DNA of 64,000 nt from Candidatus Binatus sp. (GTDB taxonomy: Bacteria > Desulfobacterota > Binatia > Binatales > Binataceae): assembly GCF_049584895.1 (NCBI RefSeq), contig NZ_JBAUYR010000001.1, forward strand, positions 321 through 64,320. The letters run 5' to 3'. Numbering within the stretch: position 1 is the stretch's first letter; the number at the start of each line of letters is the position of its first letter. The notes beneath the pieces were generated by a model. The model was not told where the DNA came from and did no database searches. It was given only the letters and a program-made list of their open reading frames with translations. A program made the position numbers and the translations under genes. Positions 3,656 to 53,404 of the stretch are shown piece after piece.

Positions 3656-6600
3656 GTGGCAGAAAATGATGGCGGTTCAACCGAGCATCGAAGTCATCCC
3701 AAGTCGCGCCCAGTTACAGTCGGGCAGACTGGCATATTCGCGCGCAGCGGCGAATACTGGACCCTCGGCTACGGCAATAGCAGCTTCTCGCTGAAGGACG
3801 TAAAAGGACTCGGCTACATTCAACGGCTGCTGCAGCATCCCGGCGAAGAATTTCACTCACTGGATCTCCTGAGCAGTCCCGGAGGAAGTAGCGCTGCCGA
3901 ACTCGAGAGCGCGGACAAGACTTCGCTACTCGGCGATGCGACTGTCAGCGTCGGTGGACTTGGCGATTCCGGCGAGATGCTCGACGCCAAAGCCAAGCAG
4001 GATTACCACCGCAGACTCGTCGATCTTCGCGAGGAACTCGACGACTTGCGTGAGCGCGGTGATGAGACGCGCGCCGCTCAGATTGAGTCCGAGATTGATT
4101 TTCTCCATCGCGAGATAGCTCGCGCAGTTGGTCTTGGCGGGCGAGACCGGCGCGCAGGATCGGCAGCCGAGCGCGCGCGGCTCAACGTGACCCGTGCGAT
4201 CAAGTCGGCGCTCCAGAAAATTTCCGAGCATAACGGCCAACTGGGCGAATTACTGGATCGATCCATCAGGACTGGATCGTTCAGTTGTTATCTTGCCAAT
4301 CCTCGTACTCCTATAACCTGGCGATTCTATCTGGATGCGGCCGCCCAGCCCCTGGCAGCCGCTGAAATCAGCGCTCCGGTTTTTTCCCGGCCCGAAACCA
4401 GCCTCGTGCAGTCGCTCGCTGAGCGCACCACATTTGTCGGCAGAGAGGCGGAGCGTTCGGTCCTGCGCCGAATGCTCGAGCGTGCACTCGGCGGCGAAGG
4501 TGGGGTCGTGATGATCGGAGGTGTGCTTGGCGTTGGCAAGACCCGAATTGCCGCCGAGTTCGCGGCCGAGGCTTCGGCTCGAGGATTCGTTACGCTGGTA
4601 GGCAGTTGTTACGATCGCGAGAATTCTCTCCCCTTCAGCCCGTTCGTCGAAATTCTAGAGTCCGCGATGGCTCAGTCGACAAGCCTGGACGCCTTCCGAA
4701 CCGCACTCGGGAATGACGCGGGAGAGATGGCACGCTTGATGCCTCAGCTACGCCGCCTTTTTCCCGACATTCCGCCGCCGCTTGAACTCTCTCCGGAACA
4801 ATCGCGTAGGATCCTCTTCAATGCGGTCGTGGAACTTCTAGGAAGGACTGCGGCGAGTGGTCCTATCCTGATGCTCTTCGAAGACCTGCATTGGGCCGAC
4901 GAAGGTACCCTATCGCTGCTCAATCATATTGCGCGGTCGATCTCGAAACTTCCGGTTCTGATACTAGGGACCTTTCGCGATAACGAGGTCGACCCCGCCG
5001 GACCAATGGCACAAACTCTCGATGAGTTACTCCGCATCCACATGCTCGAGCGGATCAGCCTGAGAGGCCTGTCGCAGAGCGCGGTCTCTCAAATGATCAG
5101 CGCGCTAAGCGGAAAAGAGCCTCCGCAGGATATCGTGAACCTTATCTACTCGGGCACTAGCGGCAATCCTTTCTTCGTTGAAGAGCTGTTCCGCCATCTG
5201 GTTGAGCGCGGCAAGCTTATGGATGCAAGCGGGGAGTTTCGTCGCGATCTCAATATCGCCGAGGTTGACGTGCCGCAAAGCCTGCGTCTGGTAATAGGAC
5301 GGCGGCTCGCCCGACTAAGCGAAGAAGCGCGAAAAATCCTCGGCCCCGCAGCGGTCATAGGTCGATCGTTCACTTTCGAGCTGCTAGAGGCCTCAACCAA
5401 CATAGATGCGGACTCACTGCTGGATTCCGTCGAAGAAGTAGAAAAGTCAGGACTGATATACTCGACCTTGGGATACCCGGAGGCGAGCTTTCAATTTTCC
5501 CACGAGCTTATTCGGAATGCAGTCCTGAACGACTTATCGGCGCCGCGTCGTCAACGGCTTCATCTCAATGTAGTAAGTGCAATCGAGCGCGTTCACGCCA
5601 ATGCCCTCGAGGATCAAGCCGGAAATCTCGCGCATCACCTGTGGCAAGCAGGCCGCACCGCCGATCCCGATAAGACTGTTCGGTACTTGGCGCTGGCCGC
5701 TCGACACGCACTCAAGCAGAGTGCTTATGAAGGAGCACTTCGTTACTTTCAGAATGCTCTGGAGCTGCTCAAAGTGTTGCCCTATTCACAAGAGCGAGCG
5801 CGGCGGGAACTCGATATACAAATTGACTACGGCTTGGCGCTGCTCGCCACTAAAGGTTGGTATGCCCCTGAAATGGGAAGCACCTACAGGCGTGCCCATG
5901 AGTTGTGCCAGAGCGTTGACGATGATCTCAGCCTATTCTCGGTGCTTTCCGGACTATGGAGCTATCACCTGGTTCGCGGTGAGCACACTATGGCAATCAG
6001 TTACACGGAGGAAATGACTCGTCTCGCGCCGCGCATGCAGAATGACGGGATGCTCATTCAGGCTGATTGGGCCTCGGGTTGCAGCCGATTTTTCAAGGGT
6101 CAATTCGCCGAAGCGCATGCCAGTCTCGAACGAGGTCGCGGGCTGTACGATCAGCAAAAGCACCGAGCGCTGGCGCTTCAATTCGGACAAGATCCTTGCG
6201 TGAGTTGTCACAGCTTCGACGCGATGACACTTTGGATTCTGGGCTATCCAGATCAAGCCGAGAAAAAGGCGCGAGAAGCCATCAAGCTTGCCCGCGACCT
6301 GGGATATCCATTCACCCTGACCTGGTGCCTCTCGATGATCGGGAAGTACTACTCGATGCGCCGTGACTATGCAGGCGCGGAAAGAGTAATAGCTGAAGGT
6401 CTCACGCTTACAAAAGAGTACGGATTTTCTTTTTTTGCAGAGTCGCTGATTGCGTATCGTGTGATCGGGTCGGCAGCCCAGGGAAAAATAGATCAGATGA
6501 CTGCTGGCGGGGGCAGTCCAGGGGGGTTCTCTGCCGCCGGCTACGAGCTGGCGCATACCTGGGCTCGATCCGAGATAGCAGAGGCTATGGGCAATCTCGG

Positions 6601-7042
6601 ACTCCTGGACGTAGCATCGGCATTGCTCGCCGAAGCGCGCGATTTGATGGAACGCAACGATGAGCGATACGTTGAATCTGAGATACATCGGATTCATGGT
6701 GAATTGAAGCTGAAGCAAGCGGCGCGTGGCTCTTCCACTTCAGCCATTGTAACCAAGACCGAGTCCGAGGCTGAAGAGAGTTTCCTCAAGGCTATCGAAA
6801 TCGCTCGCGATCGCGGTGCGAAAACTTTGGAATTGCGCGCGGCCACCAGTCTGAGTCGCATGCTCATGAAAAACAGAAGACATTCAGAGGCACGTCGCCT
6901 GTTGCAACCGATTCATGACTGGTTCACCGAAGGATTTGATTGGCCGGAGCTCGTATCCGCGAAAGCCATTCTGGTCGATCTCAATTCAACCTCAGTGTCT
7001 GTTTCTGATACCAAGAGTCCTATTCCCACACTCGATCGCTGA
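3656..7042 (+). CDS. large STAND-type AAA ATPase with C-terminal TPR-like repeats and an N-terminal module of unknown function
   Basis: 1128-aa ORF with a GTG start and GAGGGGA upstream. It has a P-loop GVLGVGKTRIAAEF, a Walker B-like LMLFEDLHWADEGT and a long helical repeat C-terminus. The C-terminal block EIHRIHGELKL...GAKTLELRAATSLSRML...DWFTEGFD is shared with the 17125-20496 protein. Confidence 0.75.
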   Translation: MAENDGGSTEHRSHPKSRPVTVGQTGIFARSGEYWTLGYGNSSFSLKDVKGLGYIQRLLQHPGEEFHSLDLLSSPGGSSAAELESADKTSLLGDATVSVGGLGDSGEMLDAKAKQDYHRRLVDLREELDDLRERGDETRAAQIESEIDFLHREIARAVGLGGRDRRAGSAAERARLNVTRAIKSALQKISEHNGQLGELLDRSIRTGSFSCYLANPRTPITWRFYLDAAAQPLAAAEISAPVFSRPETSLVQSLAERTTFVGREAERSVLRRMLERALGGEGGVVMIGGVLGVGKTRIAAEFAAEASARGFVTLVGSCYDRENSLPFSPFVEILESAMAQSTSLDAFRTALGNDAGEMARLMPQLRRLFPDIPPPLELSPEQSRRILFNAVVELLGRTAASGPILMLFEDLHWADEGTLSLLNHIARSISKLPVLILGTFRDNEVDPAGPMAQTLDELLRIHMLERISLRGLSQSAVSQMISALSGKEPPQDIVNLIYSGTSGNPFFVEELFRHLVERGKLMDASGEFRRDLNIAEVDVPQSLRLVIGRRLARLSEEARKILGPAAVIGRSFTFELLEASTNIDADSLLDSVEEVEKSGLIYSTLGYPEASFQFSHELIRNAVLNDLSAPRRQRLHLNVVSAIERVHANALEDQAGNLAHHLWQAGRTADPDKTVRYLALAARHALKQSAYEGALRYFQNALELLKVLPYSQERARRELDIQIDYGLALLATKGWYAPEMGSTYRRAHELCQSVDDDLSLFSVLSGLWSYHLVRGEHTMAISYTEEMTRLAPRMQNDGMLIQADWASGCSRFFKGQFAEAHASLERGRGLYDQQKHRALALQFGQDPCVSCHSFDAMTLWILGYPDQAEKKAREAIKLARDLGYPFTLTWCLSMIGKYYSMRRDYAGAERVIAEGLTLTKEYGFSFFAESLIAYRVIGSAAQGKIDQMTAGGGSPGGFSAAGYELAHTWARSEIAEAMGNLGLLDVASALLAEARDLMERNDERYVESEIHRIHGELKLKQAARGSSTSAIVTKTESEAEESFLKAIEIARDRGAKTLELRAATSLSRMLMKNRRHSEARRLLQPIHDWFTEGFDWPELVSAKAILVDLNSTSVSVSDTKSPIPTLDR

Positions 7043-7056
7043 AGCCGATTTACGTC

Positions 7057-8058
7057 GTGGCGCGACGCTCTACCATCAACGCTCTCGTTATCGGCGCATC
7101 GGGGCATATAGGTAACGCGATCGTTCGTGCTTTTCTGGATAGGAACTACCGGGTCAGCGCGTGCAGCCGTCGAAGTACTTCACCCGCAAACTTATCTGAG
7201 CTGCCGGTACGCTATCTGTCGGGAGACATTGAAACTCCGGGGCAGCTTGACAAATGGATAGCGGGCCACGACTTGGTCGTTGATGCCGCCGCACCTTATC
7301 CCCTCAATGTATTTTCGCTCCTGACCGAGGCCGGCAAGGATCCAATCTCGCATGCCGAGCGACGAACGCGACTGATGCTCGACGCGCTACGCAGGCACAA
7401 GGCTCGGCTTGTATACGTAGGATCTTTTGTTACTGGCGTGCGTCCTCGCACGAGCGCGCAGCGCTTCCAGCATCAGGCGATGCGGCTCGCGCATCCTTAC
7501 TTTGAAATAAAGGAGCTGATCGAGTCGCAAATCCTTGACGCGAGTCGGCGAGGAATCCAAGTCATCATCGCTAATCCGACCTACTGCCTGGGCCCATGGG
7601 ACTTGCACGATCGCCGACTTTGCACGATTCCGTTACTGCTAAGCGGGGAGATACCTTCATCCATCGGCCAGACGCTGAACGTGATCGACGTGCGCGATGT
7701 GGCTGCTGCAATCTGTGCCGCCATTGAGGGGGAACGCTACGGCGAGCCAATACAGATGAGCGGTCACGACATCTCTACCGGGGAACTGTATTCGCTGATC
7801 TGCAAGATTGGCGGTGTACCTAGCCCCAGGATGTCGACGCCGACAACTGTAGCACTTGCCGGTGCTTACGCTATGGAACTGGTGCTAGGCACGATCGGCG
7901 AGAAGACCCTGCTGCCCGCAGGAGGTATGATGATGGCCACTTTGTTCGATTACCTGGTCTCCGGCAACGAGTTACAGCAGCTTGGCATAACTCCGTGGCC
8001 TCTTACTGAGACTCTGGTGGATGCCATCAAATGGTATCGCCAGATTGGCTATTGTTGA
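7057..8058 (+). CDS. NAD-dependent epimerase/dehydratase family protein (extended SDR)
   Basis: 333 aa with the N-terminal glycine motif ALVIGASGHIGNAIVRAFL. The length and pattern are typical of dihydroflavonol-reductase/HpnA-like extended SDRs. Confidence 0.7.
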   Translation: MARRSTINALVIGASGHIGNAIVRAFLDRNYRVSACSRRSTSPANLSELPVRYLSGDIETPGQLDKWIAGHDLVVDAAAPYPLNVFSLLTEAGKDPISHAERRTRLMLDALRRHKARLVYVGSFVTGVRPRTSAQRFQHQAMRLAHPYFEIKELIESQILDASRRGIQVIIANPTYCLGPWDLHDRRLCTIPLLLSGEIPSSIGQTLNVIDVRDVAAAICAAIEGERYGEPIQMSGHDISTGELYSLICKIGGVPSPRMSTPTTVALAGAYAMELVLGTIGEKTLLPAGGMMMATLFDYLVSGNELQQLGITPWPLTETLVDAIKWYRQIGYC

Positions 8059-8084
8059 AGCCATCACTCGGTACTGTCATGTCA

Positions 8085-10403
8085 CTATTTCTTTTTCCCG
8101 CGCTGCGGAGTGCCTGGGGTCCGAGTATTGCCGTTTGCGATGGTCGCGTCAAATATCGTGTTGCGTCGCCAGGCGGTTCCCACACGCGAACACATTTCCT
8201 GGCCGGTATCTCCTATCATCACACCTGAGACCCAGAATGGATCGATTGGGTTCAATGTATATATCGGGTATGCGCCAGTGCTATCGCATTGCTCCGGTAC
8301 AAGTCCAAGGGTTCCAACGATTGGGAAAGTTGGATAGTCGAAGACTCTGATCGACAGCGGTGCAAGCAGGCCTGTAGCCGGGTTTCCAGAAGAGTCTTTG
8401 ATTCCTGTGAATTGCCGAAGCAGTGCTACCAGCGATTGGTAATTCGCCAGAGCGCAGTCTTCCGCGTCCATGACCTGTTTTAGTGATATGCTGTGAAACT
8501 CGTTTCCAGTCAGGAAGTGACTCAGCCCGAGCTGCTTCAAATAAGTTACTATTGAACCCCGAGCTGGTGTTCCCGGTGCAGAAAGAATTTCGAGCACGCG
8601 CATATCCTGTGCTTCCTGACTTCTGCCGAGTTCAGGAAAGAGCTCGGTCTCGACAGTCACTAGCGGGTCGGGTTCGGGCGACCTCGTGACTCCGACCAGC
8701 CAGGAAATATCCGGATTAACTAGTTTCGACTTGAGAGATAGCTGCCCATACACTTCGTACGACGTTACAGCATTCCAATCGGTACCTGCGAAAATATACA
8801 GCGGGATTAACGCCGGGCGCTTGATGCGAGGATTGCGCTTTTCCCACCATGACACCGGCACCGCGAAAGCCAGTTCACGATCTGAATACCTGGTGTCTTT
8901 GTCGCCGGCTGCAGTCATCCCTTCGAAGTTGGTACCTATGAGACATACGACCGAGTGTGATCCATAAGCGTCCTTGATCTGACCCGAAACTTCAAACTTG
9001 AAGAAATCATTCTGCAGGTACCTATCGACCAGGTCTTGTAGCGTGTCTTTGTTCGCTCTAAGAGGCATCACGCGGAGCGTCATTTCCGGGAAATGGTAAG
9101 GACCGCTCACCTCCTCACTTGCACCGCTTCCCAGATTCAGATACGCGATCTCTCTGCGCGGTATTTGTTTGAGCGAATCGCCACTAGACCATGTGGTGGT
9201 ATTTGTGCGCCAGCATTGCGAGTAAGCCAGCCCATAGCCCAAGTCCATCTTTAGCCAGAATGGCATCGTAGGTCGCAGTGTCGATGCAGGCTTCCCTCCG
9301 ATGCTCGAATATTCAGAAGTCTCAAGTCCGAGAGTCCGCACGATCGGCTGAGCTACGCTATTGAGTAGGTTGATGTAAATTCCGCCGGAAATATCACCCG
9401 CAAGCGGATCGAAAAGAGAGCCACCATCGATCGTTCTCTCGATTTGCATCCTGGATCCGACAAGGGCTTGAAAGCATGCAGCCGAGGAACTATGCACGTC
9501 GCGGATTTGCTTCATAGTGACAATGTTGAAGGGAGCTACCACAGCACCTTGATCCGAGGGCTGACGGGATGCTGCATTTTCCGGAGGTGCGCGGAAAGAA
9601 CGAGGGGCAATCGAGTTCGCCAGTCCGTAAAAGCGCGACAACATCTCCTCCAGAGACTTCAGATCGCGATCGGAGTAGCCCACCGGGAAAAGGCCTGCAG
9701 TTTCGAAAATGCTGTAGGCAGCTGTTACCGAACCGGCTATTGCCCGCGGAATCGCGCTGAAAAGATCGGTCAGAGCCGAGCTTGCCGACACGAAAGCCCG
9801 GCGTTGAAAGATCTGGAGAAACTCCTCAATGTCCGAGGCTTCACCGTAGTTAGTGCCCGACGTCACGAGGCTGATGCTAGCCAGGCGGCGCGCGTTGCCC
9901 GCCTCGAAAATCGATGGGGAGGCGTCGAGCTTGATTGCAGACTTTGACCACCCATAGATCTTTCGACCACCGGATAATGAAAGTGGGTTATCCACGAATA
10001 TAAATGGAAATACCATCGCCCAGTCGACGAATACCCACTCGTTCTTGTCCTTCTTGTAGCATCTAAGCGGTACGCCAAATGCCAGCTCATGCTGCGAAAA
10101 CCATCCTAGATTTCTCGATGTAGTAGCCATCTCCCCGTAGTCAACGACCTGCATCAAGACCCATGGAACCGCGGGCTTGAAGTGAAGCGGTAATTCCTCG
10201 TCCAGGTTGAGATAGCTATCGCAAAATTCCTGGAGCCGGTTCATGCTGGCTTTCAGCGGAAATATCTGCGTCACCACGTCGCTGTATTTCTGCTCCAGAT
10301 GCGCCGGTAGAGCTAGAAATTCACCGAGCGCCAGGTTGTATTCAGGCAGGATAGTGCCGACAGGCTTAGATCTTCGATTCGTCCGGCGCTTTTTCTTCGC
10401 CAT
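8085..10403 (-). CDS. hypothetical 772-aa protein with two tandem homologous halves (possibly acetoacetate-decarboxylase-like folds) and Lys/Arg-rich termini
   Basis: Long uninterrupted ORF lying 9 nt downstream of the polyprenyl synthase. Both halves show the ordered motifs L[KR]A..+.LQ-[FL][CV]D.YL, [HR]ELAF[GA]VP[LV], an I[FY]-rich strand ending in YG and F+-I[TS][ML]KQ. The pattern VD....GR-.YG..K resembles the ADC family. No confident family match from memory. Confidence 0.6.
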   Translation of the reverse strand: MAKKKRRTNRRSKPVGTILPEYNLALGEFLALPAHLEQKYSDVVTQIFPLKASMNRLQEFCDSYLNLDEELPLHFKPAVPWVLMQVVDYGEMATTSRNLGWFSQHELAFGVPLRCYKKDKNEWVFVDWAMVFPFIFVDNPLSLSGGRKIYGWSKSAIKLDASPSIFEAGNARRLASISLVTSGTNYGEASDIEEFLQIFQRRAFVSASSALTDLFSAIPRAIAGSVTAAYSIFETAGLFPVGYSDRDLKSLEEMLSRFYGLANSIAPRSFRAPPENAASRQPSDQGAVVAPFNIVTMKQIRDVHSSSAACFQALVGSRMQIERTIDGGSLFDPLAGDISGGIYINLLNSVAQPIVRTLGLETSEYSSIGGKPASTLRPTMPFWLKMDLGYGLAYSQCWRTNTTTWSSGDSLKQIPRREIAYLNLGSGASEEVSGPYHFPEMTLRVMPLRANKDTLQDLVDRYLQNDFFKFEVSGQIKDAYGSHSVVCLIGTNFEGMTAAGDKDTRYSDRELAFAVPVSWWEKRNPRIKRPALIPLYIFAGTDWNAVTSYEVYGQLSLKSKLVNPDISWLVGVTRSPEPDPLVTVETELFPELGRSQEAQDMRVLEILSAPGTPARGSIVTYLKQLGLSHFLTGNEFHSISLKQVMDAEDCALANYQSLVALLRQFTGIKDSSGNPATGLLAPLSIRVFDYPTFPIVGTLGLVPEQCDSTGAYPIYTLNPIDPFWVSGVMIGDTGQEMCSRVGTAWRRNTIFDATIANGNTRTPGTPQRGKKK

Positions 10404-10412
10404 AGATTCCCC

Positions 10413-11444
10413 CTAGTTCCGTTCGATCACCCACGTGGCCATTTGTTCGAGAAATCTTTTGTCGCGTGAATCGGGCAGTCCGGCGCTAACGAGTGAGTAT
10501 TCGTGCAGAGCGGCGCCCGCCAATCCATGTGCTATCTGGCGCGCATACTCTGTGCATCCATACTTATCCATCAGCTTGCGTATCCACCGGACCTCCGAAG
10601 GTGCTCGTTCTTCTCTCGGCCTGCAAAGGATTTCCGATAGCCGCGCGCGCTCCTTTCTGGTTGATTCTTGTATGGTACGAATCAACATCAGCGTTCGCTT
10701 GCCTTCCCAGATATCGCCGTCAATCTCCTTGCCATAGCCGTCGTCCCCCACAAGGTTGAGCAGATCGTCCTGGATCTGAAACGCGGCACCGAGAAAAAAT
10801 CCGTAACGCACGAAAGGATCCAGATCCACTGAGTCGCGGCTCCCGATCAATGCACCGACGCGAACCGGATAAATCGTCGCCAGCCAACAGGTCTTCTTCA
10901 GTACCATTTCCATGTAGTCAGCGTCGTCGATTTCAGTTGTGTTGTATCGGCGCCACCCGAGTTCCATGGCCTGCCCCTCTGCACACTCACGGGCCATTCG
11001 CTGGGTCTCTTCGATAATTCGGATGGTAAGCCGTTCGCCGATCCGGGCTCGATTGTCGAGCAACGGTTTGAAGCTCATGAGTGTCAAAGTGTCGCCGGCA
11101 TTGAGCGCGAGTGGCACGCCGTGCAGAAGATGCAAAGTCGGACGGCCGCGCCGCTTCTCGCTTCCGTCTTCGATATCGTCATGGATAAGTAGCGCGTTGT
11201 GCAGCATCTCGATCGCGACTGCCGTCTGCATAGCATTCTCGAGTGGCGCGCCGAACAGACGCGCTGCCGCGATGCACATGCTAGAGCGCATCATTTTCCC
11301 GCCGCGTTGCGGATAATCACTCAGTAGATCATACAGGTAGCGCCTCGGTTCCCTGGATGGCAGGTATTTGATGAGAGCAGCGCGGGTGAGATCCCCGTAT
11401 TCACGCAGCATCTCGTGGACTAGCGATGATGTGGTAGCGCTCAA
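10413..11444 (-). CDS. trans-polyprenyl diphosphate synthase (GGPP-synthase-like)
   Basis: 343 aa with the first Asp-rich motif LIHDDIEDGSEKRRGRPT and the second FQIQDDLLNLVGD. A small residue (Ala) five positions before the first motif suggests a product of C20 or longer. Confidence 0.85.
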   Translation of the reverse strand: MSATTSSLVHEMLREYGDLTRAALIKYLPSREPRRYLYDLLSDYPQRGGKMMRSSMCIAAARLFGAPLENAMQTAVAIEMLHNALLIHDDIEDGSEKRRGRPTLHLLHGVPLALNAGDTLTLMSFKPLLDNRARIGERLTIRIIEETQRMARECAEGQAMELGWRRYNTTEIDDADYMEMVLKKTCWLATIYPVRVGALIGSRDSVDLDPFVRYGFFLGAAFQIQDDLLNLVGDDGYGKEIDGDIWEGKRTLMLIRTIQESTRKERARLSEILCRPREERAPSEVRWIRKLMDKYGCTEYARQIAHGLAGAALHEYSLVSAGLPDSRDKRFLEQMATWVIERN

Positions 11445-11462
11445 CGGGTTATAGCCAGTTCC

Positions 11463-12182
11463 TTAGTCAGCAATTCGAATGCTCAGCGTTCCTCGAACGT
11501 CGCCGCTGTTTCGATTCACGATTACGCCAGAGTAGATACCGGCAGGTTGACTGTCCAGAATTTGAAGGCGCAGTTTAATCCGGCCCGGAACCTCGTCGGG
11601 TACTAAGCTGATATCTCTCAGTGCTGGCTTGTTGGAATCGATTGCGTGCAAGCCCAGCGAAACGAGTGACTGAGCCTCGGAGTTCGGCTGGAGTTCAATT
11701 GACACCTGGACGGGTCGGACCGAGACTACTTCGATGGATACCGCCATCGTGTTGGTGTTCTTACCGTTAACAGGCGGTGGCTTGGCTTCGGGCGGCGGCG
11801 CTTGACCGTTTCGCGACGGATCTACCTTCACCAAGGTCGCCAGCGTCTCGATCCAGAGTGGAAGCATCTCAGCCTGGAACCGCAACGTGCGTTCGAGAAC
11901 GTCTTGCAAATTGTCGTTTGTCGCGCGGGTCGCATAAGGCTGACTGCTGAGGCCTTGGGCGGTTCGCCGTCCCTCGGCGATATACTTGTCGATCACGCTG
12001 TACGCCAGTTCGACGCCCTTCGCCAACGGACCGCCGCCGGCTTTCCGCGGCGGATCGGCCGGGACTGGCCTGGCAGGATGAGTTCCGTTCAAGGAATCCT
12101 GACGGCTGTAGAGTTTGGAGAAATCGCGACTAGGTCCAACTCGCGCCGGATCAACGCGATGAAGTCGTTTGCGAACGCTCAT
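11463..12182 (-). CDS. hypothetical protein (helical N-half, Pro-rich linker, beta-rich C-half)
   Basis: 239-aa ORF sitting 18 nt from both neighbours in the same operon. The linker reads QAPPPEAKPPPVNG. The C-half VSIEVVSVRPVQVSIELQP...GIYSGVIVNRNSGDVRGTLSIRIAD looks like a beta-sandwich. No family recognised. Confidence 0.55.
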   Translation of the reverse strand: MSVRKRLHRVDPARVGPSRDFSKLYSRQDSLNGTHPARPVPADPPRKAGGGPLAKGVELAYSVIDKYIAEGRRTAQGLSSQPYATRATNDNLQDVLERTLRFQAEMLPLWIETLATLVKVDPSRNGQAPPPEAKPPPVNGKNTNTMAVSIEVVSVRPVQVSIELQPNSEAQSLVSLGLHAIDSNKPALRDISLVPDEVPGRIKLRLQILDSQPAGIYSGVIVNRNSGDVRGTLSIRIAD

Positions 12183-12200
12183 GTTCCACCTGGCAAAGTC

Positions 12201-14408
12201 TCAAGGATGGTCGAAGGCGACTATGTCTTCAAGTGCAGGTGAAGATGAAATCGCGTGTGCCGCAAGCCTGCCGGAAATGACGGCCGCTTCGACGCATCCT
12301 GCATCCAGCCCGCACGTCGTCCAGTCGCCCGCTATTGTAAGGTTATCGTATGTGTTATCGAGTGGTGAGATTCGATATTTCTGGGTGCCGGGCAGCGAAA
12401 GGACATACCGTTCGCTGGGATTCACATTTGCCGTCCAATACTGGGAGTCAAAACGAGCTTCATCGCCGGCGCAAGCTCTACGGCCGGGTGCTTTCTCGTT
12501 AGAATCGATCAATAAGTCCCACTTGAATTTTCCCTGCTGCGTCGTCGCCTTAGGCCATAGCTGACCGATCTCACGATTGAGATAACGAATTGCGTTTTCC
12601 CGCACCTCTAATCGCCGCTGCACGAGGTAATTGTCAGCAGACACTTCGCGCGGCGATAGAGGATCTTTCAGTACGCTGCAGAAGTAAGCGATGGCCTTTG
12701 GGCTTACCTTCCACCGCTCCTCGCGGATCAGATGGCTCATGTCCGCCCAGGTCTCGAAGGGTTGCACGAATGCCGACAGCGCCAGCGGTGGGTCGTTCCA
12801 TCCTAGCTGTTCCATATCTTCGCGAAGCCAGATCTGATACGCTTGGGTGTTAACAGTTTTCAAATGCTTCACCATATCGCGCCAGCGCTCATCGCGTTCT
12901 ATAAGCTCTTGACACACATATGGAATAGCTCCCAATCCCACTCCCAGCACGACGAAATCGAAATCTTCGGCCACACGCAAGATCCTTGTCGCGATGCGTC
13001 TGCGGTCCCAATGCGATTCAAAATCCCGTTTTTCGCTTTCGAAACTACTGCCGTCGATCAACTGCGAGTAGTCTGGCCGCGACGGCCAACACGGTAGTCC
13101 GTCTACGTCGATCAGCGGTTCGTATTCCTTTCCGTTTCTGACTTTTGCCTGGACATCGAACTCCAACGCTTTGACGTAGGCGCGCTCTCCCGGCGCAAGA
13201 TCCGCGGGATCCGCCAACCTAACTCTTTCCAAGCGATGGAAAAATCTGAAACCTACTCCCCGCTTTTTGAGTAACTCGTACATCGGCGCAAAGACTGTGT
13301 CTCCCATGCCGGCATGCATCTTCCAAAAGATCGCGCCGCGCGAGCTGAATAGCATTCGCAATGCGCCGCGTAGCGCAACTCCCGCACCGTGTCGCGGACG
13401 CTGATAGTCGCCATTCTCATAGGCGAAAACCAGATCGTAAGCTCCGCGGATAAATGGCGACTCGAGCGACTTGTCCGACGCGCCGTTGATTCGCAACCAC
13501 TCGCGAAAGTCGTAGTCGTTGATCGCATCGAAACCTCGCGGATCCGAAATCAGCCCGAAGCGCAGAATCCCGCGCATCGATGCCATCGCCAAATCGATTC
13601 CTTGCCATAACACAAGCAACTCGGGGTCGTTCTCAATCATCGCCTCGATTTGACGGCGAGCACTCGATGCTATGACTTCCAGAAGCTGCGCGATCCCATC
13701 TAATGGATAAGTCAAACGCGGGGCAAGCAGCGTCTCGAGCATTTCGACTGCTTCGATCAGGCCGGCGGTCGTCGCAATCAGGCCTAACCTCAGGAGGCGT
13801 GCTATACGCTTAGCAGGATCATCAGCGGATTCGCCACTGTTCGGCATTGACTTATGCGACGGTCCCGCTTGGTAAGTGGCGCCCCCTTCGTTTGTCGAAG
13901 TTCTGCCGCTTCGGCCCGCTTGCACCGCGAGCAGCAGCGTCCGCACGATGCTGGCTGTACGCGCGAGATAGGATGTGACGGTAAATGGATCGTTCTCGTC
14001 GATAGGATCACCAGGGAGGCCGTCGCCTGGGGGGAAGTACGATAAAAAATTCCAATAGGTGCCGTTGCGCGACCGCTTGGCGAGGCCGATGAAGGGCGCT
14101 GGCGAGAATGCGTCGCGCCAATCTGCGATTCTGCATTTGCGCCGATCGCGCTTCAACTCCACGTAGCATTCGCGTATCAGCCGAAATGCATTCTCGTAGG
14201 ATCCCATCCATAGGTGAAGCCCGTGTTCTTCGATTCTATCGGCTGGACCGCGCCCCGAAGCTCCTTTGCCGCCAAGTCGCCAGCCGAGTTGATAGATTGT
14301 TACCTGGTATTTGCCCTTGTGCGCGGGGCGGCTCAGTTCGAAAGCAGCGGAGATCGCAGCGCATCCGCCACCTATGACGGCAACTCTGATCGGCTTCTGT
14401 TTGGGCAA
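12201..14408 (-). CDS. FAD/NAD(P)-binding oxidoreductase, phytoene-desaturase/HpnE-like (COG3349-type) with large insertions
   Basis: 735 aa with a TTG start and GAGGAA RBS. It has the dinucleotide motif IRVAVIGGGCAAISAAFEL, then RLGGK and EHGLHLWMGSYENAFRLIRE (compare EHGLH.FFGAY.N in plant-type desaturases). The C-terminal flavin motif is LTIAGDWT.CGLDAGCVEAAVISGRLAA. Confidence 0.75.
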   Translation of the reverse strand: MPKQKPIRVAVIGGGCAAISAAFELSRPAHKGKYQVTIYQLGWRLGGKGASGRGPADRIEEHGLHLWMGSYENAFRLIRECYVELKRDRRKCRIADWRDAFSPAPFIGLAKRSRNGTYWNFLSYFPPGDGLPGDPIDENDPFTVTSYLARTASIVRTLLLAVQAGRSGRTSTNEGGATYQAGPSHKSMPNSGESADDPAKRIARLLRLGLIATTAGLIEAVEMLETLLAPRLTYPLDGIAQLLEVIASSARRQIEAMIENDPELLVLWQGIDLAMASMRGILRFGLISDPRGFDAINDYDFREWLRINGASDKSLESPFIRGAYDLVFAYENGDYQRPRHGAGVALRGALRMLFSSRGAIFWKMHAGMGDTVFAPMYELLKKRGVGFRFFHRLERVRLADPADLAPGERAYVKALEFDVQAKVRNGKEYEPLIDVDGLPCWPSRPDYSQLIDGSSFESEKRDFESHWDRRRIATRILRVAEDFDFVVLGVGLGAIPYVCQELIERDERWRDMVKHLKTVNTQAYQIWLREDMEQLGWNDPPLALSAFVQPFETWADMSHLIREERWKVSPKAIAYFCSVLKDPLSPREVSADNYLVQRRLEVRENAIRYLNREIGQLWPKATTQQGKFKWDLLIDSNEKAPGRRACAGDEARFDSQYWTANVNPSERYVLSLPGTQKYRISPLDNTYDNLTIAGDWTTCGLDAGCVEAAVISGRLAAHAISSSPALEDIVAFDHP

Positions 14409-14417
14409 ACCATTTCC

Positions 14418-15543
14418 TCACGCAATCGGATCCTCGGCGCTCGCGCAACCGAACGAAACATCTAATATACGCGCGAGTACGTCAACCGTGATGATGCCGG
14501 TCGGCGACCGTGCTAGATAGCACTGTGCCGACGCCCCTATCGACGTCGGCACAGCCGCCAGCCCCTTGCTATCGCAAGGTTTATTTTCGAGCGTTCTCCG
14601 ACTACGGGTGACTGCTCGCGAGCTCCAGGTTCCCGGTTGTAAAGAACGCATTGTCCACAGCGCCGGCGCCAGCATTCGCCGCTCGCCAAGAAATCGATAG
14701 TCGAAGTTGGCGGGATTCGCGGAAAAGCCAAAGAGCGAATCCGAATCCACGTTGTTGGCAAAAGCCGCCACCGGACTATTTGCCACGCCCGCGAATGTCC
14801 CGCCGCCTTCACCTGCGCCAAAGGTCGGCGGTGATGCTATCGGATCCGATTGGGACGACTCGGTTTCGCGCCGCAGCCGTCGGGCCTCACGATTGTACAT
14901 CCAGATGTCATCGGCTCGGTTCGGATCTATGTAACGAAATCGAAGCAACCCGTAACCGTTCATTGCTGAAGGTTCAAGGGATCGGCGGTACTTCAACCCG
15001 TCCGACATTGTTGTACTGCGCCATGTGCCCCACGATGAAGTAGTTCACCGGAGTTGAGTCGTTCCATGGAGAATAGGTGGCCATTTCCGGATAGCGAATG
15101 TCGAAGTCGTCCGAATACATCGGCCGATAGGTGTAGTTCCAGATTATCTTGGTAGCTATCGCAGGATCGTTCGCATCGAGCAAAGGAAACGGGAGACCAG
15201 CGACGTATCCGTTGAGCGACCCATCCGCACTCAGGGTGACCTGCGGCGAATACCTTTCGGTTGCGACTCGGTATGGTGGTGGCCAATCAAGCCGGCTCGA
15301 AGCGACGATACGAACCGGGACTCCTCGCGTCACCAGCACGTAGCTGCCCGGACTCAAGTACGCTTGGGCAACCGAAGCATTCGTAGTGGTAATCGTTTCG
15401 TCCGGCCGGATTGTATCCGTAGGCTGCACAGAGTCGATAGTCGCTGTGGTTGTTACACTCACCTGCGCGGCTGAACTGTAGGAAGGTAGTGCGACCATCA
15501 TTGCGATGGTCAGGAGTGGGAGAAGATTTTTCCCGGTTCTCAT
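14418..15543 (-). pseudogene. DUF1329 (LolA-like outer-membrane lipoprotein-sorting family) gene, frameshifted and probably 3'-truncated
   Basis: Two overlapping ORFs in different frames (14974-15543 and 14418-15008). The first has a signal peptide plus GYVAGLPFPLLD...IIWNYTYR. The second has DIWMYNREARRLRRE and FDYRFLGERRML. Together they follow the DUF1329 order, but the tail after RRML is short and unlike the family. Confidence 0.55.
14510..14554. promoter_or_regulatory. 14-nt palindrome GTGCTAGATAGCAC abutting an 11-bp-stem hairpin, about 100 nt upstream of the isoprenoid-type operon
   Basis: Read directly from the sequence. GTGCTA-GA-TAGCAC lies at 14510-14523. CTGTGCCGACG (14523-14533) pairs with CGTCGGCACAG (14544-14554) around a 10-nt loop. 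The function (operator or terminator) is inferred only. Confidence 0.25.
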
Positions 15544-15718
15544 AGGGGTTGCCTCATATTCCCAAGCATAGGTTGGAAACGTCGGTGGATTTATCGAGCC
15601 CAGTTATCAAGCAATCAATGGACCAGCTCTCGTTTGTAGAGCTAAAACGGTGAGTCAATTGAAATCGTAGCGGAATAAGCCGACAAATGTTGAGGAATCA
15701 GTCGAGCGGTCGAACGTG

Positions 15719-16946
15719 CTACTCTCGCGTAATAATTTTGTGCGTGTCTAGATAGGACGTGATCGGTGTCGCGCTGGCTTCAGGATCCGCTATCGCCACG
15801 TAGCCATCGGGCCTCACCAAATATGCCGCGTTGCGTCGCAACCCAATGGCTCCCATTTCAGGACGCCATGGAAAGACGTGCAGCGGTAATTTCCGCGAGT
15901 TGCACGACGAGCGAAAATCGGGCGTTTCGTTACCGTAAATGTGGACTTGCCAATCCATCGAGGTCAGCGGCTTGAAGTTATCCGCATCGACGCCGTCCAT
16001 CTTCACCCAAGGCAACCGGTCGCCGCCGTGAACCTCGCCCGCGCGCCCCACGCTCAGCTTGCTCTCACGGTAGTTCACCCGTATCTGAGAAATTGTGAGA
16101 AACATAAACCGCCGCATCTGCGGGAGCTTGAACAGCGATGGAATCACGATCGGCACGAGATGCAATCGCACCAACCGCGCGAGCGCACTACGGCTGGTCA
16201 CACCGGTGAAGGCTCGATCTGTAGTGGCGACGAGCCGCCGGGCGAAAGCGATCCTTTCAGGCTCGTAACTGTCCAGGATCGAAGCGTCGGCATGTCCTCG
16301 CAGCACAGCAGCGAGTTTCCACGCGAGATTCACTGCGTCGCTGATGCCAGTATTCATCCCCTGTCCGCCCACGGGACTGTGGATGTGCGCGGCATCGCCG
16401 AGAAGGAACGCGCGTCCCTGGCTGAAATGATCCGCGACGCGATGATACACGCGATAGGTCGAAAACCAGTTCACGCGCTCGACCTCGATGCGCATCCGCC
16501 TGATCACCTCCTTGCTCACATCGTCCCACGAGAGGTCATCGTGCTGATGTTCGGCTTCCTCGCCCACCGTTCCGACCAGCCGAGCGCGGCCCTCGCCTTT
16601 CAGCGGGAAGGCGAACAGAAAATCGCTGGTGTCGAGCGCTAGGTGCAGCTCGCCGTTCATCGTCGGTCCCCACAACGTGTCCTTCTCTCTTGCCCGACAC
16701 CCACAGATTCGCTGCGACGGCCTTTCGCCCGCGCTCGACGACTGCTTTGGCAAGCCCGATTTGATCGTACAACTCGAGCGTGCGTGCCTGTACCGCGAGT
16801 GCCCGCGACGTCGTCCCCGGCTCCGACGTCTTATCGACGATCCTCACGCGCACACCAAATCGAGTCAGCCACAACCCCAACACCAGCCCAGTCGGCCCAG
16901 CGCCTACAATAAGAACCTCAGTGTCATGACTCGAAGGCGAATTCAT
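15719..16946 (-). pseudogene. FAD-dependent aromatic-ring monooxygenase (PheA/TfdB-type), frameshifted with an internal deletion
   Basis: The N-terminal ORF (16536-16946) has EVLIVGAGPTGLVLGLWL. The second ORF (15719-16753) has GDAAHIHSPVGGQGMNTGISDAVNLAWKL. The frames switch near 16660-16680. The expected roughly 100 aa carrying the GxDGxxS motif between them is absent. Confidence 0.6.
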
Positions 16947-17124
16947 CTCGAAGACAAGCCGATCTTACGACAGACTTCCCATCGAGACCACGAACGTCTG
17001 CAAGGCCCGGAGACGGAGCTACGGAGCACCCTTGATCGACCGCTCCTCCGCTTAACTTGATAGCCCCGTGCTGCTTCCGCCGTCCGCGCAGGGTGTGGTA
17101 GTAACCGAGGCCACAGGAGACCCG

Positions 17125-20100
17125 ATGCGCTGTTCGTCCTGCAACTACGACAACCCCGCCGACGCCTCGTTTTGCGAGGGATGCGGAGCGAAGCTGGGGT
17201 TGATTTGCCCGGTGTGTAAAGCGTCGGTGAGTCCTGGAGCGCGATTCTGCAAGAAGTGTGGAACTGCGATTGACCCCACAAAAGCCGCTGCCTCCACGAC
17301 CGTTTTTTCGCCTAAATCTCAAATCATAGTCACCGCCGATGGCGCGGCGCCCGAAGCAATCGACGGCGAGCGCAAGACGGTCACGGCGCTGTTCGCCGAT
17401 ATCAAGGGATCGACCGAACTCGAGCAGGATTTAGACCCCGAGGAGGCGCGCACGATTGTAGACCCGGCGCTGAAGCTTATGATCGATGCGGTCCATCGCT
17501 ACGATGGCTACGTCGTGCAAAGCACCGGCGACGGCATCTTTGCGATCTTTGGTGCACCGGTAGCTCACGAAGATCATCCGCAGCGCGCGCTCTACGCCGC
17601 GCTCAGGATGCAAGAAGAACTAAAGCGTTATTCGGCAAGATTGCGCGAGGCCGGCAACCTGCCGATCGAAGCGCGCGTCGGCGTGAACACTGGCGAAGTA
17701 GTAGTGAGGTCGATCTCGACCGGCGGTGGTCATACTGAATACACGCCGATCGGGCATACGACCAATCTCGCGTCGCGAATGCAGGCGCTCGCGCCTACAG
17801 GCTCGATCGCAATCAGCGAGCAGGCGCGCAAGCTGGTTGATGGCTATTTTGCGCTGAAGCCGCTCGGACCGACTAAAGTCAAAGGCGTCAGCGAGCCAGT
17901 CAATGTTTACGAGGTGACTGGTCTCGGACCGCTGCGTACGCGCCTGCAACGCTCTGTGGGTCGCGGGTTGTCAAAGTTCGTTGGGCGGCAGGCCGAGATG
18001 GACGCCCTCAAGCGCGCGGCGGAGCAGGCCAAGGCGGGCCGCGGGCAGATCGTCGCCACGATGGCGGAGGCCGGCACCGGGAAGTCACGGCTCTTTTTCG
18101 AATTCAAAGCGAAGAACCAGTCGGGCTGGATGGTGCTCGAAACGTTCTCAGTGTCGCACGGCAAGGCATCGCCATATCTTCCAGTACTCGATCTCCTCCA
18201 CGGTTATTTCCACATCGCGGCCGAAGATGATCCGAGGACCCGACGTGAGAAGGTAAATGGGCGGATTGTCACGCTCGATCCCGCCCTGGAGGACACCCGC
18301 CCGTATTTGTTCAGTCTGCTTGGAATCGTCGACGGTGACGATCCGCTCTCGCAGATGGGCGCACCGGTGAAGCGCCGCCGGACTCTCGATGCCATCAAAC
18401 GCATCATCCTGCGGGAATCGCTGAATCAGCCGCTGATGGTGATCTTCGAGGATCTCCATTGGATCGACGAGGCGACACAGGAATTTCTGAATCTGCTGGC
18501 CGACTCGATTGGGACTGCGAAGATTCTGTTGTTAGTTAATTACCGGCCCCAATACTCGCATCAATGGGGTTCCAGGACTTACTACACGCAACTTCGGCTC
18601 GATCCGCTCGGCCAGGACTCCGCGGAAGAGATGTTGTCCGCCCTGCTCGGGAGTGGCGTGGACCTCGCGCAACTCAAGCGGGTAATCATAGAAAAGACCG
18701 AGGGCAATCCTTTCTTCATGGAGGAGACCGTCCAGGTCTTGCTCGACGAAGGCGCGCTGCTGCGCAACGGCGCGATTCACCTCACGCGGCCGATAGCAGA
18801 ATTGAAGATTCCACCGACGGTCCAGGGAATCCTCGCCGCGCGCATTGATCGCCTGCCGCACGATGCCAAGGAATTACTGCAAACGCTGTCAGCAATTGGA
18901 CGGGAATTTCCGCTGTCCTTGATCCGCGCCGCGTTCCCCAAGCCGGAGGAGGAGCTTAACCGGACGCTGGATGATCTCCAGCTCGGCGAATTCATCTACG
19001 AACAGCCCGCGGTCGGAGATACCGAATACATTTTCAAGCACGCACTCACCCAGGAAGTCTCCTATAACTCTATCCTCCATGAGCGTCGCAAGCATTTGCA
19101 CGAATGCATCGGCGCTGCGCTTGAGAAGCTGCACTCAAGCTCCATCGACGACCATATTGACGGACTAGCGCACCACTATGGCAGAAGCGGCAACTCGCTG
19201 AAGGCGCTCGAATACCAGGAGCGGGCAGGCAGGCAAGCAGTTCAGCGCTCGGCTTATGGCGAGGCGACTCGAAACTTCACCGACGCTCTGGAATTTCTTC
19301 AGCGGCTACCGCCGAGCGCCGCACGCGACCAACGAGAATTCGTCCTGCAAACCAGCTTGGGACCGGTACTCATGGCGACAAGAGGATGGTCAGCGCAGGA
19401 AACTGAATGGGCCTTTCGTCGCGCGGAGGAACTCGCCGAGATCGGAGGTACTCCCGAGCAGCGTTTCGCACTGCTTGTGGGTTTGTTCGGAATCTTCTAT
19501 GTCGGTGGCAATTTGACGGCTGCCCGCGAGTGGTTGAAGGAAATTCTGGAGTTCACCAAGGAGTACCCGCAGCCCGCGTTCGTCCTCGAGACCTGTCATC
19601 ATGAGTGGTCGGCTGCGCTCTCGGCCGGAGAGTTGGACGCTGCCCAGCAGCACGTCGATCGTGGGCTGGCGCTCTACGAGGCGCAACTCCGCTCGGTTCC
19701 CATACCGCTCTATACCGCGCACCACCCCGCGGTATGTGGTCACGGCTGGGGCGCTCTCGTCTTGTGGCTGCACGGCTTTTCCGATGCCGCGCGGCAGCAC
19801 GCGAACCGGTCCATTTCACTCGCGCAGGAACTTGAAGATCCCCTTTCCCTCGCCTGGGCTCTAAGCACCAGAGCACTCGTTCACCAAGTCATGCGAGAAG
19901 CGCAGCCTGCTCTGGAAGTGGCTGAGGCCGCGATAACCAAAGCTGAGGAAATGGGTTTCCTCCACGTTCTGTGGAACGCGCGAATCGCGAAAGGTTGGGC
20001 ATTGGCCGAGCTTGGCAGAACAGAAGAAGGAGTGGCGCAGATTCACGAAGCGATTGCCGCCCTGTCTGCTGTCCGAGCGGAGTTGTGGCTCACACAGGAT

Positions 20101-33022: not shown

Positions 33023-33071
33023 TCTAGCGATAGCGCTGAATTGCGCCGCGGGTTTTCCGACTTCAACTCAT

Positions 33072-34070: not shown

Positions 34071-34128
34071 GCAAACTCTTTTTCTCCCTGATCGCGAAAC
34101 CCCATATTGCGAGTGCTAGTCTCTTCGC

Positions 34129-50768: not shown

Positions 50769-51968
<1,200 letters not shown>

Positions 51969-53382: not shown

Positions 53383-53404
53383 AGATCGGGAGGGGATCCA
53401 GAAC

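Follow-up and report, generated by a model that had tools for sequence, protein, structure and literature searches.

A conserved six-gene module from Binatota that links a prenyl diphosphate synthase to a tandem acetoacetate decarboxylase-fold protein

The stretch of 64,000 nucleotides from contig NZ_JBAUYR010000001.1 that was analysed here (referred to as the window) carries a compact minus-strand operon which raises a simple question: why is a trans-isoprenyl diphosphate synthase (IDS) coupled to a flavoprotein of the desaturase type when there is no canonical enzyme that would build an isoprenoid scaffold? The operon starts with the gene for a 735-aa FAD/NAD(P)-binding flavoprotein (12201-14408, TTG start) and continues with genes for a putative small accessory protein of 239 aa (11463-12182, ATG start), for the 343-aa IDS (10413-11444, TTG start) and for a 772-aa protein (8085-10403, ATG start). 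The genes are separated by gaps of 18, 18 and 9 nt, and the coordinates, lengths and gaps of a preliminary description, which was made from the sequence alone, were found unchanged in the list of open reading frames (ORFs). We consider the region to be one copy of a widespread and hitherto undescribed six-gene module, which may run a pathway derived from geranylgeranyl diphosphate (GGPP) that uses iminium/enamine chemistry on an acetoacetate decarboxylase (ADC) fold. The probability of this reading is, in our estimate, about 45%.

The absence of canonical partners, which had been the starting point of the preliminary description, was confirmed. A domain scan, which covered 41 larger ORFs of the window, did not detect a phytoene/squalene synthase, a terpene cyclase, a UbiA-type prenyltransferase, a lycopene cyclase or a quinone-pathway gene. 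Also, no canonical scaffold gene, including HpnC/D or a cyclase, recurs in about 100 related loci. The closest matches of all four operon proteins (92-96% identity) are found in metagenome-assembled genomes of Candidatus Binatus and Binatia, and thus the window is from an uncultured member of the Binatota.

The 772-aa protein had been described as internally duplicated and as lacking a recognisable family. The first of these statements holds, as the N-terminal and C-terminal halves are homologous according to hhalign (probability 99.7%, E 3.5e-26, 297 columns). The second had to be revised because the protein contains the ADC fold twice. An AlphaFold2 model (pLDDT 78, pTM 0.80), when compared to the PDB with Foldseek, retrieved the ADCs 3CMB, 3C8W and 3BGT/3BH2 together with MppR (4JMD) at E-values of 1.6e-8 to 5e-7, with a probability of 1.00 and target TM scores of 0.52-0.67; nothing else was significant. 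The N-terminal domain covers residues 20-420 approximately (nt 9144-10346, minus strand) and includes a disordered insert at residues 205-290, and the C-terminal domain extends from about residue 421 to residue 760 (nt 8124-9143, minus strand). The Pfam profile ADC (PF06314) assigns only 17.7 bits to the protein, with a gathering threshold of 29.8, and several relatives score above that threshold (P0395 with 36.1, P0407 with 35.4, a single-domain paralogue in locus L026 with 44.0, and the neighbour from Azospirillum with 41.4 bits).

Links that are based only on sequence could not be established. Neither phmmer nor an hmmsearch with the family profile connected the 772-aa protein to solved structures in the PDB. 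When it was compared to the ADC of Clostridium acetobutylicum (CaADC) by hhalign, a weak match to the start of the C-terminal domain was all that was obtained; the comparison of the hidden Markov model with CaADC was not significant, and the local pairwise alignment did not exceed shuffled sequences. For this reason, the assignment draws on the Foldseek result, on the Pfam profile and on a bridged alignment, for which the CaADC sequence was taken from pSOL1 and aligned by MAFFT with two single-domain ADC-like neighbours as bridges. In this alignment, FVDNPLSLSGGRKIYGWSK of the 772-aa protein is paired with YLDNEPAIAVGRELSAYPKK of CaADC, so that K154 is placed on K115 and E106 on E76, and the coordinates of the Pfam profile agree with this pairing. 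The predicted Schiff-base lysine Lys154, which is part of the motif FVDNPLSLSGGRKIYGWSK, is encoded at 9942-9944 and its partner Glu106 at nt 10086-10088 (both minus strand).

The conservation of these residues is strong. Among the 227 aligned relatives (from 233 family sequences), K154 is kept in 226, and E106 as well as R147 in all. The equivalent lysine of the C-terminal domain, K558, persists in 121 of 226 relatives, and position 155, which corresponds to the second lysine of CaADC (K116), is occupied by Ser, Ala or Val in most of them. At the level of this motif alignment, the N-terminal copy is thus predicted to keep the Schiff-base Lys/Glu pair of ADC. We regard the protein as an enzyme of the ADC superfamily with one active site predicted to be live and one predicted to be dead, the C-terminal copy probably being a pseudo-dimer partner that has lost its lysine. 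A function as true acetoacetate decarboxylase (EC 4.1.1.4) was rejected, given that the adjacent second lysine and an equivalent of Arg29 are missing and that the protein is a 772-aa tandem. An exhaustive profile search returned 1,965 clusters of the tandem family at 50% identity, many of them with 900-1350 aa and extra domains.

The ADC fold forms a deep hydrophobic funnel, and so it has to be considered whether the protein is not a catalyst at all but a carrier which holds a hydrophobic ligand in its beta-cone pocket, or a structural component, leaving the prenyl synthase and the flavoenzyme to make the product by themselves. Such a role would be in line with the low conservation of the 772-aa protein, which is 27-44% identical across lineages compared to 57-73% for the flavoprotein and the IDS. 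It would also be in line with the variable number and architecture of the ADC copies (single, tandem, or enlarged to 900-1350 aa and bearing additional domains, for instance a jacalin lectin), and with a Mycobacterium plasmid version of the cluster in which ADC is not detectable. However, K154, E106 and R147 are nearly invariant in about 230 diverse relatives although the surrounding sequence drifts, and this is the pattern typical of a catalytic site. As the equivalent lysine of the C-terminal domain has decayed, selection must be specific to the N-terminal site. In addition, ADC is found fused to the flavoenzyme, which suggests consecutive enzymatic steps. We therefore consider a non-catalytic role unlikely.

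That these genes belong together is evident from their conserved order. Species genomes from GTDB were scanned with the tandem ADC protein as anchor, and the 28 resulting loci were checked by tblastn with the window proteins. The order flavoprotein, small ORF, IDS and ADC, usually followed by SDR (short-chain dehydrogenase/reductase) and STAND genes, is kept in 23 of them, which include loci from Binatia, Woeseiaceae (L026), Methylococcaceae (L029), Holophagales (L030) and an unclassified proteobacterium (L024); L001 and L028 are solo paralogues. In a scan of metagenomes, the flavoprotein served as anchor, and the best 80 of 538 loci, down to 43% identity, were analysed. The IDS gene starts at most 2.5 kb downstream of the flavoprotein gene in 48 of the 49 loci with enough sequence. 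Among the 37 loci with flanks of at least 8 kb, all have an IDS, 32 an ADC-like protein, 32 an NAD(P) reductase and 30 either a STAND protein or a Ser/Thr kinase-TPR protein, and in 25 the IDS, ADC-like protein, reductase and STAND NTPase occur together. The reductase of the related loci is either of the SDR type or similar to saccharopine dehydrogenase. There is always a small ORF between the flavoprotein and IDS genes, and clusters of eight lineages contain a UbiE-like methyltransferase.

This order is found again in dozens of loci that belong to several phyla, which is far more than chance could explain; at least Binatota, Gammaproteobacteria and Acidobacteriota inherit the module as one unit. 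The synteny with a polyprenyl synthase, on which the preliminary description had made its idea depend, is found wherever close or moderately distant homologues occur.

Some of the clusters show deviations in their ADC genes or carry insertions. In the Holophagales genome (L030, 8756-19017), which is metagenome-assembled, the IDS gene is followed by genes for an 856-aa tandem ADC protein and for a 1085-aa protein with an extra ADC domain, beyond which an Hsp70-like protein of 813 aa, a 799-aa protein and a Ser/Thr kinase-TPR protein are encoded. Three tandem ADC paralogues are found in L103. In L003, a single-domain ADC-like gene is located upstream of the tandem one, and an IS21-type transposase pair (Mu-transpos_C_2 and IstB_IS21, 16965-19238) lies between the IDS and SDR genes.

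Cultured organisms were covered by a tblastn search with the flavoprotein against plasmids, which identified homologues with 33-41% identity; the tandem ADC protein, when searched against plasmids in the same way, did not find any match. The cluster of Mycobacterium sp. JS623, at about 358-368 kb on pMYCSM01, consists of genes for an IDS, for a 229-aa protein in the position of the small one, for a cyclase-STAND protein, for the flavoprotein and for a reductase resembling saccharopine dehydrogenase, with no detectable ADC. Plasmid p3 of Azospirillum brasilense Sp7 codes, at about 360-368 kb, for the flavoprotein, a FadL-type channel, a member of the ADC family, another flavoprotein and a large AAA ATPase. 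ADC adjoins the flavoprotein in Catenovulum adriaticum, and a cyclase adjoins it on a plasmid of Rufibacter tibetensis (Bacteroidota), where neither ADC nor IDS was detected. Plasmids of cultured Actinomycetota, Alphaproteobacteria and Gammaproteobacteria carry reduced or rearranged versions of the module. On a plasmid of Qingshengfaniella alkalisoli (L120, 9001-11907), the flavoprotein and ADC are joined in a single 968-aa protein (FPZ52_RS14105), followed by a cyclase-STAND protein and a Crp/Fnr regulator. The ADC domain of this fusion scores 31.3 bits with the Pfam profile and thus exceeds the threshold. As the two are fused in one protein, there is independent evidence that flavoenzyme and ADC-fold enzyme act together.

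Upon comparison with these loci, it became evident that the unit does not end with the four genes to which the preliminary description had confined it. The functional unit has six genes, because the SDR and STAND NTPase genes, which are encoded on the opposite strand and face the operon, travel along with it. The extended SDR (7057-8058, plus strand, 333 aa) is convergent with the operon, and its stop codon is 26 nt away from that of the 772-aa gene. In almost every Binatia locus, and also in L023 and L024, it is the neighbour of the ADC gene; in 23 other loci, its place is taken by a Sacchrp_dh_NADP-type reductase. The Pfam domains Epimerase, NAD_binding_10 and 3Beta_HSD match to the SDR. With 148 bits for HpnA (TIGR03466), at a cutoff of 367.65, it could not be identified as HpnA; the score for SdmB is 89 bits.

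The STAND-type NTPase gene (3656-7042, plus strand, 1128 aa) adjoins the SDR gene in all close relatives. Its product has the architecture of STAND regulators, with AAA_16 (89 bits) and TPR_12. The N-terminal 250 residues do not match to any family, and a match to Guanylate_cyc was not obtained. Over about 900 residues, the protein is 30% identical to a cyclase-bearing paralogue which is encoded in the same window (17068-20496, plus strand, 1142 aa) and which consists of a double zinc ribbon, a class III adenylate/guanylate cyclase, AAA_16 and TPR. In other lineages, this cyclase-bearing type is the neighbour of the cluster, the STAND partner there having an adenylate/guanylate cyclase domain, or else a Ser/Thr kinase-TPR protein takes its place. 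The NTPase-TPR sensor is kept while the output domain changes between lineages, as is typical of ligand-sensing regulators of the MalT-like type, and it is likely that the protein acts as sensor or regulator of the module.

A sensor of this kind could also belong to a conflict, defence or signalling island, in which the STAND protein would sense an invader or stress and raise a cyclic-nucleotide signal while the enzymes make a toxic or signalling molecule. The nearly constant presence of a STAND NTPase with a TPR sensor, often with an adenylate/guanylate cyclase domain, would fit such an island, and in Qingshengfaniella the cyclase is followed by a Crp/Fnr regulator. The cultured examples reside on plasmids, some of them mobilizable, in the vicinity of recombinases, a PDDEXK nuclease and a patatin-like protein; an IS21 element has entered the cluster in L003; and the phyletic distribution is patchy. 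In the window itself, the GC content is reduced to 0.53 over the tandem ADC gene (positions 8001-10000), compared to 0.56-0.62 in the flanks, which may indicate a foreign origin. However, PADLOC-DB 2.0 did not return a single match for any of the six proteins at E-values up to 0.01. The STAND output domain varies (N-terminal domain, cyclase or kinase) while the enzymes stay, for which a MalT-like metabolic regulator is the better fit, and the STAND copy of the window is devoid of a cyclase domain. The clusters of Binatia are part of large chromosomal contigs with stable flanks. A conflict, defence or signalling island is, in our view, quite improbable.

Upstream of the operon, two minus-strand genes (14619-16946) are decayed while the four-gene operon beside them is intact. 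L006 has undamaged homologues of both (463 and 515 aa), and in comparison to these, the DUF1329 gene is distributed over two reading frames and has lost its last 140 codons or so, and the FAD_binding_3 monooxygenase lacks about 100 internal codons and undergoes a frame change. Both were rejected as core members of the pathway, being lineage-specific and decayed in the window. According to tblastn with the intact L006 genes, homology to DUF1329 stops at 14619. The region of approximately 210 nt between this remnant and the flavoprotein gene (14409-14618, minus strand) probably contains the promoter. A scan for promoter and terminator consensus sequences did not yield matches above the shuffle expectation.

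The neighbouring genes also bear on another possibility, namely that flavoenzyme, ADC-fold enzyme and reductase transform or degrade a hydrophobic compound which is imported, such as an exogenous lipid or terpenoid, and that the prenyl synthase has been added in one subfamily only. In Azospirillum, an outer-membrane channel of the FadL/TodX type is encoded between the flavoprotein and ADC genes. In Woeseiaceae and in L036/L037, the cluster has TonB-dependent receptors at its flanks, the LolA-like DUF1329 gene adjoins it in close Binatia relatives, and there are versions with flavoprotein and ADC that do not have an IDS. On the other hand, an anabolic prenyl diphosphate synthase is present in 37 of the 37 long loci of the subfamily to which the window belongs, always two genes from the flavoprotein. 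The transporter genes are lineage-specific and not part of the core, and in the window the DUF1329 gene has decayed next to an intact operon. Import followed by transformation or degradation is thus also a rather unlikely function of the cluster.

The identity of the prenyl synthase is clear at the family level. The Pfam domain polyprenyl_synt (PF00348) matches to residues 36-285 of the 343-aa protein with 187.6 bits (E 3e-55, cutoff 27). Both of the Asp-rich motifs that had been noticed in the preliminary description are present: DDIED at residues 89-93 (nt 11166-11180) and DDLLN, which ends with Asn, at residues 226-230 (nt 10755-10769). By these sequence characteristics, the protein is classified as a bona fide trans-isoprenyl diphosphate synthase. 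The nearest solved structure is the GGPP synthase of Thermus thermophilus (1WMW, E 7e-62). The top NCBIfam models are IdsA (NF040698; 210.6 bits with a cutoff of 468) and GGPP_syn (NF041003; 177.9 bits with a cutoff of 500); as both scores are below the cutoff, the protein was not assigned to either of these equivalogs. The model for encapsulin cargo prenyltransferases (NF041169) gives 170.5 bits with a cutoff of 450 and the CrtE model 98 bits with a cutoff of 460. A Family 2 encapsulin cargo prenyltransferase was rejected because of this low score and because no shell-like gene is found among the scanned ORFs and neighbours. Judged by its relatives, the enzyme would most likely produce C20 GGPP, which is a reasonable assumption.

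The flavoprotein had been described as similar to phytoene desaturases and HpnE and as oversized. It is indeed about 250 residues longer than plant PDS, the extra length being located between the common segments, and its middle part is divergent; the family likeness is limited to the FAD-binding ends. NAD_binding_8 matches to residues 11-80 and Amino_oxidase solely to residues 645-720. The score for HpnE (TIGR03467) is 59.5 bits (cutoff 283), with only the two ends matching, and those for PDS (TIGR02731) and ZDS (TIGR02732) are 30.5 bits (cutoff 569) and 28.4 bits (cutoff 622), so that the equivalog cutoffs are missed 5- to 20-fold. The best solved relative is rice PDS (5MOG), which aligns only at the ends and has a profile match with an E-value of 0.043. 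An identification as PDS or ZDS was rejected since both equivalog cutoffs are failed, and HpnE was rejected on account of its cutoff and because no gene of the squalene/phytoene synthase family occurs in the window or in related loci. Within its own family, the protein is extremely well conserved: in an alignment of 23 sequences, each 61-88% identical to the window protein, the mean column identity is 71%, and across phyla the identity is 57-64%.

These similarities have to be weighed with respect to the known isoprenoid pathways. The operon might be a fragment or variant of a carotenoid pathway (CrtE with CrtI/PDS) or of a squalene/hopanoid pathway (FPP synthase with HpnE and HpnA), the synthase gene being located at another place in the genome. 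Pigment genes have been reported for Binatota, HpnE, PDS and ZDS are the families nearest to the flavoprotein at its N-terminus, and the top NCBIfam match of the SDR is HpnA. However, the equivalog scores for HpnE, PDS, HpnA and CrtE are all far below the cutoffs, the window and about 100 related loci show neither a phytoene/squalene synthase nor HpnC/D nor a cyclase, and the constant partners of the operon, ADC-fold enzyme and STAND NTPase, occur in neither of the two pathways. We consider such an origin to be very improbable.

For the 239-aa protein, the lack of a recognisable family was confirmed. No sequence match to Pfam, NCBIfam or the PDB was obtained even at E-values up to 10. The AlphaFold2 model has a pLDDT of 63 overall and of about 80 for a beta-sandwich. 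An invariant basic N-terminal peptide (residues 1-25), which is predicted to be disordered, is followed by a disordered linker, a helical hairpin (52-117) and the beta-sandwich, which has 7 strands (148-237). Foldseek did not find a significant match to this model, the top non-significant ones being the lipid-binding sandwiches MD-2 (E 0.19), NPC2 and GM2 activator. The modelled resemblance to ML-type lipid-binding sandwiches is a mere hint. A small subunit of a heteromeric synthase as in HepS/HexA was rejected because a beta-sandwich with a hairpin is predicted and not an IDS-like helical bundle. Judged from its model, the protein looks like an accessory or lipid-handling protein and not like the enzyme of the committed step.

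From the gene content and the predicted folds, we infer a working scheme in which the chain length, the substrates, the sequence of the reactions and also whether a small-molecule product exists are all provisional. The prenyl synthase would provide a short-chain all-trans prenyl diphosphate, with GGPP as the foremost candidate, and the 239-aa protein may bind a lipid or bridge the enzymes. The oversized flavoenzyme would oxidise, desaturate or reduce the prenyl chain or a derivative of it. In the N-terminal ADC domain, Lys154 and Glu106 would form an iminium/enamine with a carbonyl partner, and this C-C step would define the pathway. Here, a beta-keto acid could be decarboxylated, a prenal could undergo an aldol or retro-aldol reaction, or the enamine could attack the allylic diphosphate, for which a phosphatase would not be needed. 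The resulting carbonyl or enone would be reduced by the SDR or, elsewhere, by the reductase resembling saccharopine dehydrogenase. The STAND protein would sense substrate or product and control the output, possibly at the level of transcription in the window and via cAMP/cGMP or phosphorylation in other lineages.

Two further proposals go beyond this scheme. The tandem ADC-fold protein may represent a new class of isoprenoid scaffold-forming enzyme, the iminium/enamine at its lysine being coupled to the C20 unit or cleaving it. Here, an enamine may react with GGPP to a prenyl ketone or keto-acid, or an aldol/retro-aldol reaction may take place on a desaturated prenal, and the product may be a signalling lipid which is read by the co-inherited STAND sensor. 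We regard this as a speculative and fairly unlikely idea. That flavoenzyme and SDR would instead make a conjugated C20 aldehyde, held on Lys154 as chromophore or ligand so that a soluble sensor with cyclic-nucleotide output results, is a far-fetched notion.

Several observations weigh against a GGPP-derived pathway with ADC-type chemistry. The 772-aa protein stays below the Pfam ADC threshold, its connection to ADC being one of fold and motif-level alignment, and comparisons to CaADC alone, be it by hidden Markov model or pairwise, are not significant. Arg29 of ADC, which binds the carboxylate, is not kept and aligns to Ser or Asp. The metagenome figures describe the IDS-containing subfamily, to which the best 80 of the 538 loci are biased. 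Distant versions consist of flavoprotein and ADC, in part with a cyclase, and are devoid of IDS, and the version on the Mycobacterium plasmid has an IDS and no detectable ADC; the two halves can thus work apart. Given that the core of flavoprotein and ADC exists without the prenyl synthase in distant versions, the central chemistry may not be intrinsically isoprenoid. Outer-membrane uptake genes flank some versions, and several are plasmid-borne or located beside mobile elements. Finally, an enzyme that could connect GGPP with chemistry of the ADC type, be it a phosphatase or one which generates a carbonyl, does not recur in the neighbourhoods.

The proposal of an undescribed isoprenoid pathway in the preliminary description is therefore sustained in part. 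The module is a conserved orphan unit with an IDS, and a description of this gene combination was not found in a full-text search of the literature, that on Binatota/Binatia giving nothing relevant; that the product is prenyl-derived continues to be an assumption. It had also been suggested that the committed step is carried out by one of the two proteins without family, and that the idea would fail if either of them matched to well-characterised families unrelated to isoprenoids. For the 772-aa protein, a catalytic role is plausible due to the Lys/Glu pair of the ADC type, while the 239-aa protein looks non-enzymatic. The objection is touched upon by the assignment of the 772-aa protein to the ADC superfamily, for which we know of no link to isoprenoids; the 239-aa protein matches to no family. 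In summary, the enzymes are from known superfamilies but their combination is undescribed, and we classify the module as a specialised lipid or isoprenoid gene cluster which probably makes an isoprenoid-derived molecule.

What usually gives away an isoprenoid pathway, also in genome mining, is its scaffold enzyme (a terpene cyclase, a squalene/phytoene synthase or a UbiA-type transferase). A module of the type described here would be missed by genome-mining tools, as these key on such enzymes. If its product is prenyl-derived, this would be a new route of isoprenoid diversification and the first lipid-linked role for the ADC superfamily, and the cyclase/STAND sensors, which form a very large orphan family, would gain a ligand. 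The existence of cultured carriers (Mycobacterium sp. JS623 with pMYCSM01, Azospirillum brasilense Sp7 with p3, and Qingshengfaniella alkalisoli) makes the question directly testable.

Some other genes of the window, all on the plus strand, are mentioned for completeness. BacA (undecaprenyl-diphosphate phosphatase, 35331-36188), a housekeeping gene at a distance of 21 kb, is the one isoprenoid-linked gene that was seen in addition to those of the operon. A one-chain enzyme of 1144 aa (25835-29269) resembles acyl-CoA carboxylases and combines biotin carboxylase, biotin carrier domain and carboxyltransferase. A set resembling the arginine succinyltransferase pathway (31511-35166) consists of an aldehyde dehydrogenase, a DDAH-like protein and AstA; its first two ORFs overlap by about 250 nt, so that one start codon is probably mis-called. 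A histidine kinase with an ethylene-receptor-like N-terminal domain (ETR1_N, 2e-42) is encoded at 48240-49532, with a sigma-54 activator downstream (50769-51968), and a 400-aa protein with a bacterial archaeo-eukaryotic release-factor-like domain (baeRF family 10, 1.7e-27) at 53372-54574.

The components were also compared to known systems. The IDS aligns over its full length with the Thermus GGPP synthase 1WMW and the archaeal IdsA types, and they have in common a first motif DDIEDGSE-RRGRP and a second motif DDxLN, but the IDS of the window is encoded in an operon devoid of carotenoid genes and is below every NCBIfam equivalog cutoff. With the cargo prenyltransferase systems of Family 2 encapsulins, it shares a score of 170 bits to the cargo model and the theme of a prenyl enzyme combined with cyclic-nucleotide signalling. 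It differs from them in that a disordered cargo-targeting extension was not identified in the IDS and a shell gene was not found among the scanned ORFs. The flavoprotein shares two features with HpnE and with desaturases of the PDS/ZDS/CrtI type, the GLH-W-G-Y-N motif in the Rossmann start that binds FAD and an AGD-T segment near the C-terminus, but it is about 250 residues longer, cannot be aligned in its middle part and has no squalene/phytoene synthase as partner.

The STAND protein resembles MalT-type regulators and the mycobacterial cyclase-ATPase-TPR proteins such as the Rv0386 class in having an AAA_16 and TPR sensor encoded beside the operon that it presumably controls. The likeness to the mycobacterial proteins extends to the N-terminal class III cyclase domain which most STAND partners of other lineages carry; the N-terminal domain of the window protein, however, is neither a cyclase nor a helix-turn-helix domain. 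With the ADC superfamily (CaADC, MppR of enduracididine biosynthesis, and the aldolase-dehydratases of the Sbi00515 type), the 772-aa protein shares the beta-cone fold in each of its halves and the motif D-N-x5-G-R-x5-K, which together with an upstream Glu aligns with the catalytic residues K115 and E76. While the known members are single-domain proteins of about 245-290 aa, the window protein is a 772-aa tandem with an insert of about 85 residues and a second site predicted to be dead, and it is genetically linked to a prenyl synthase and a flavoenzyme, a linkage that is new to descriptions of this superfamily.

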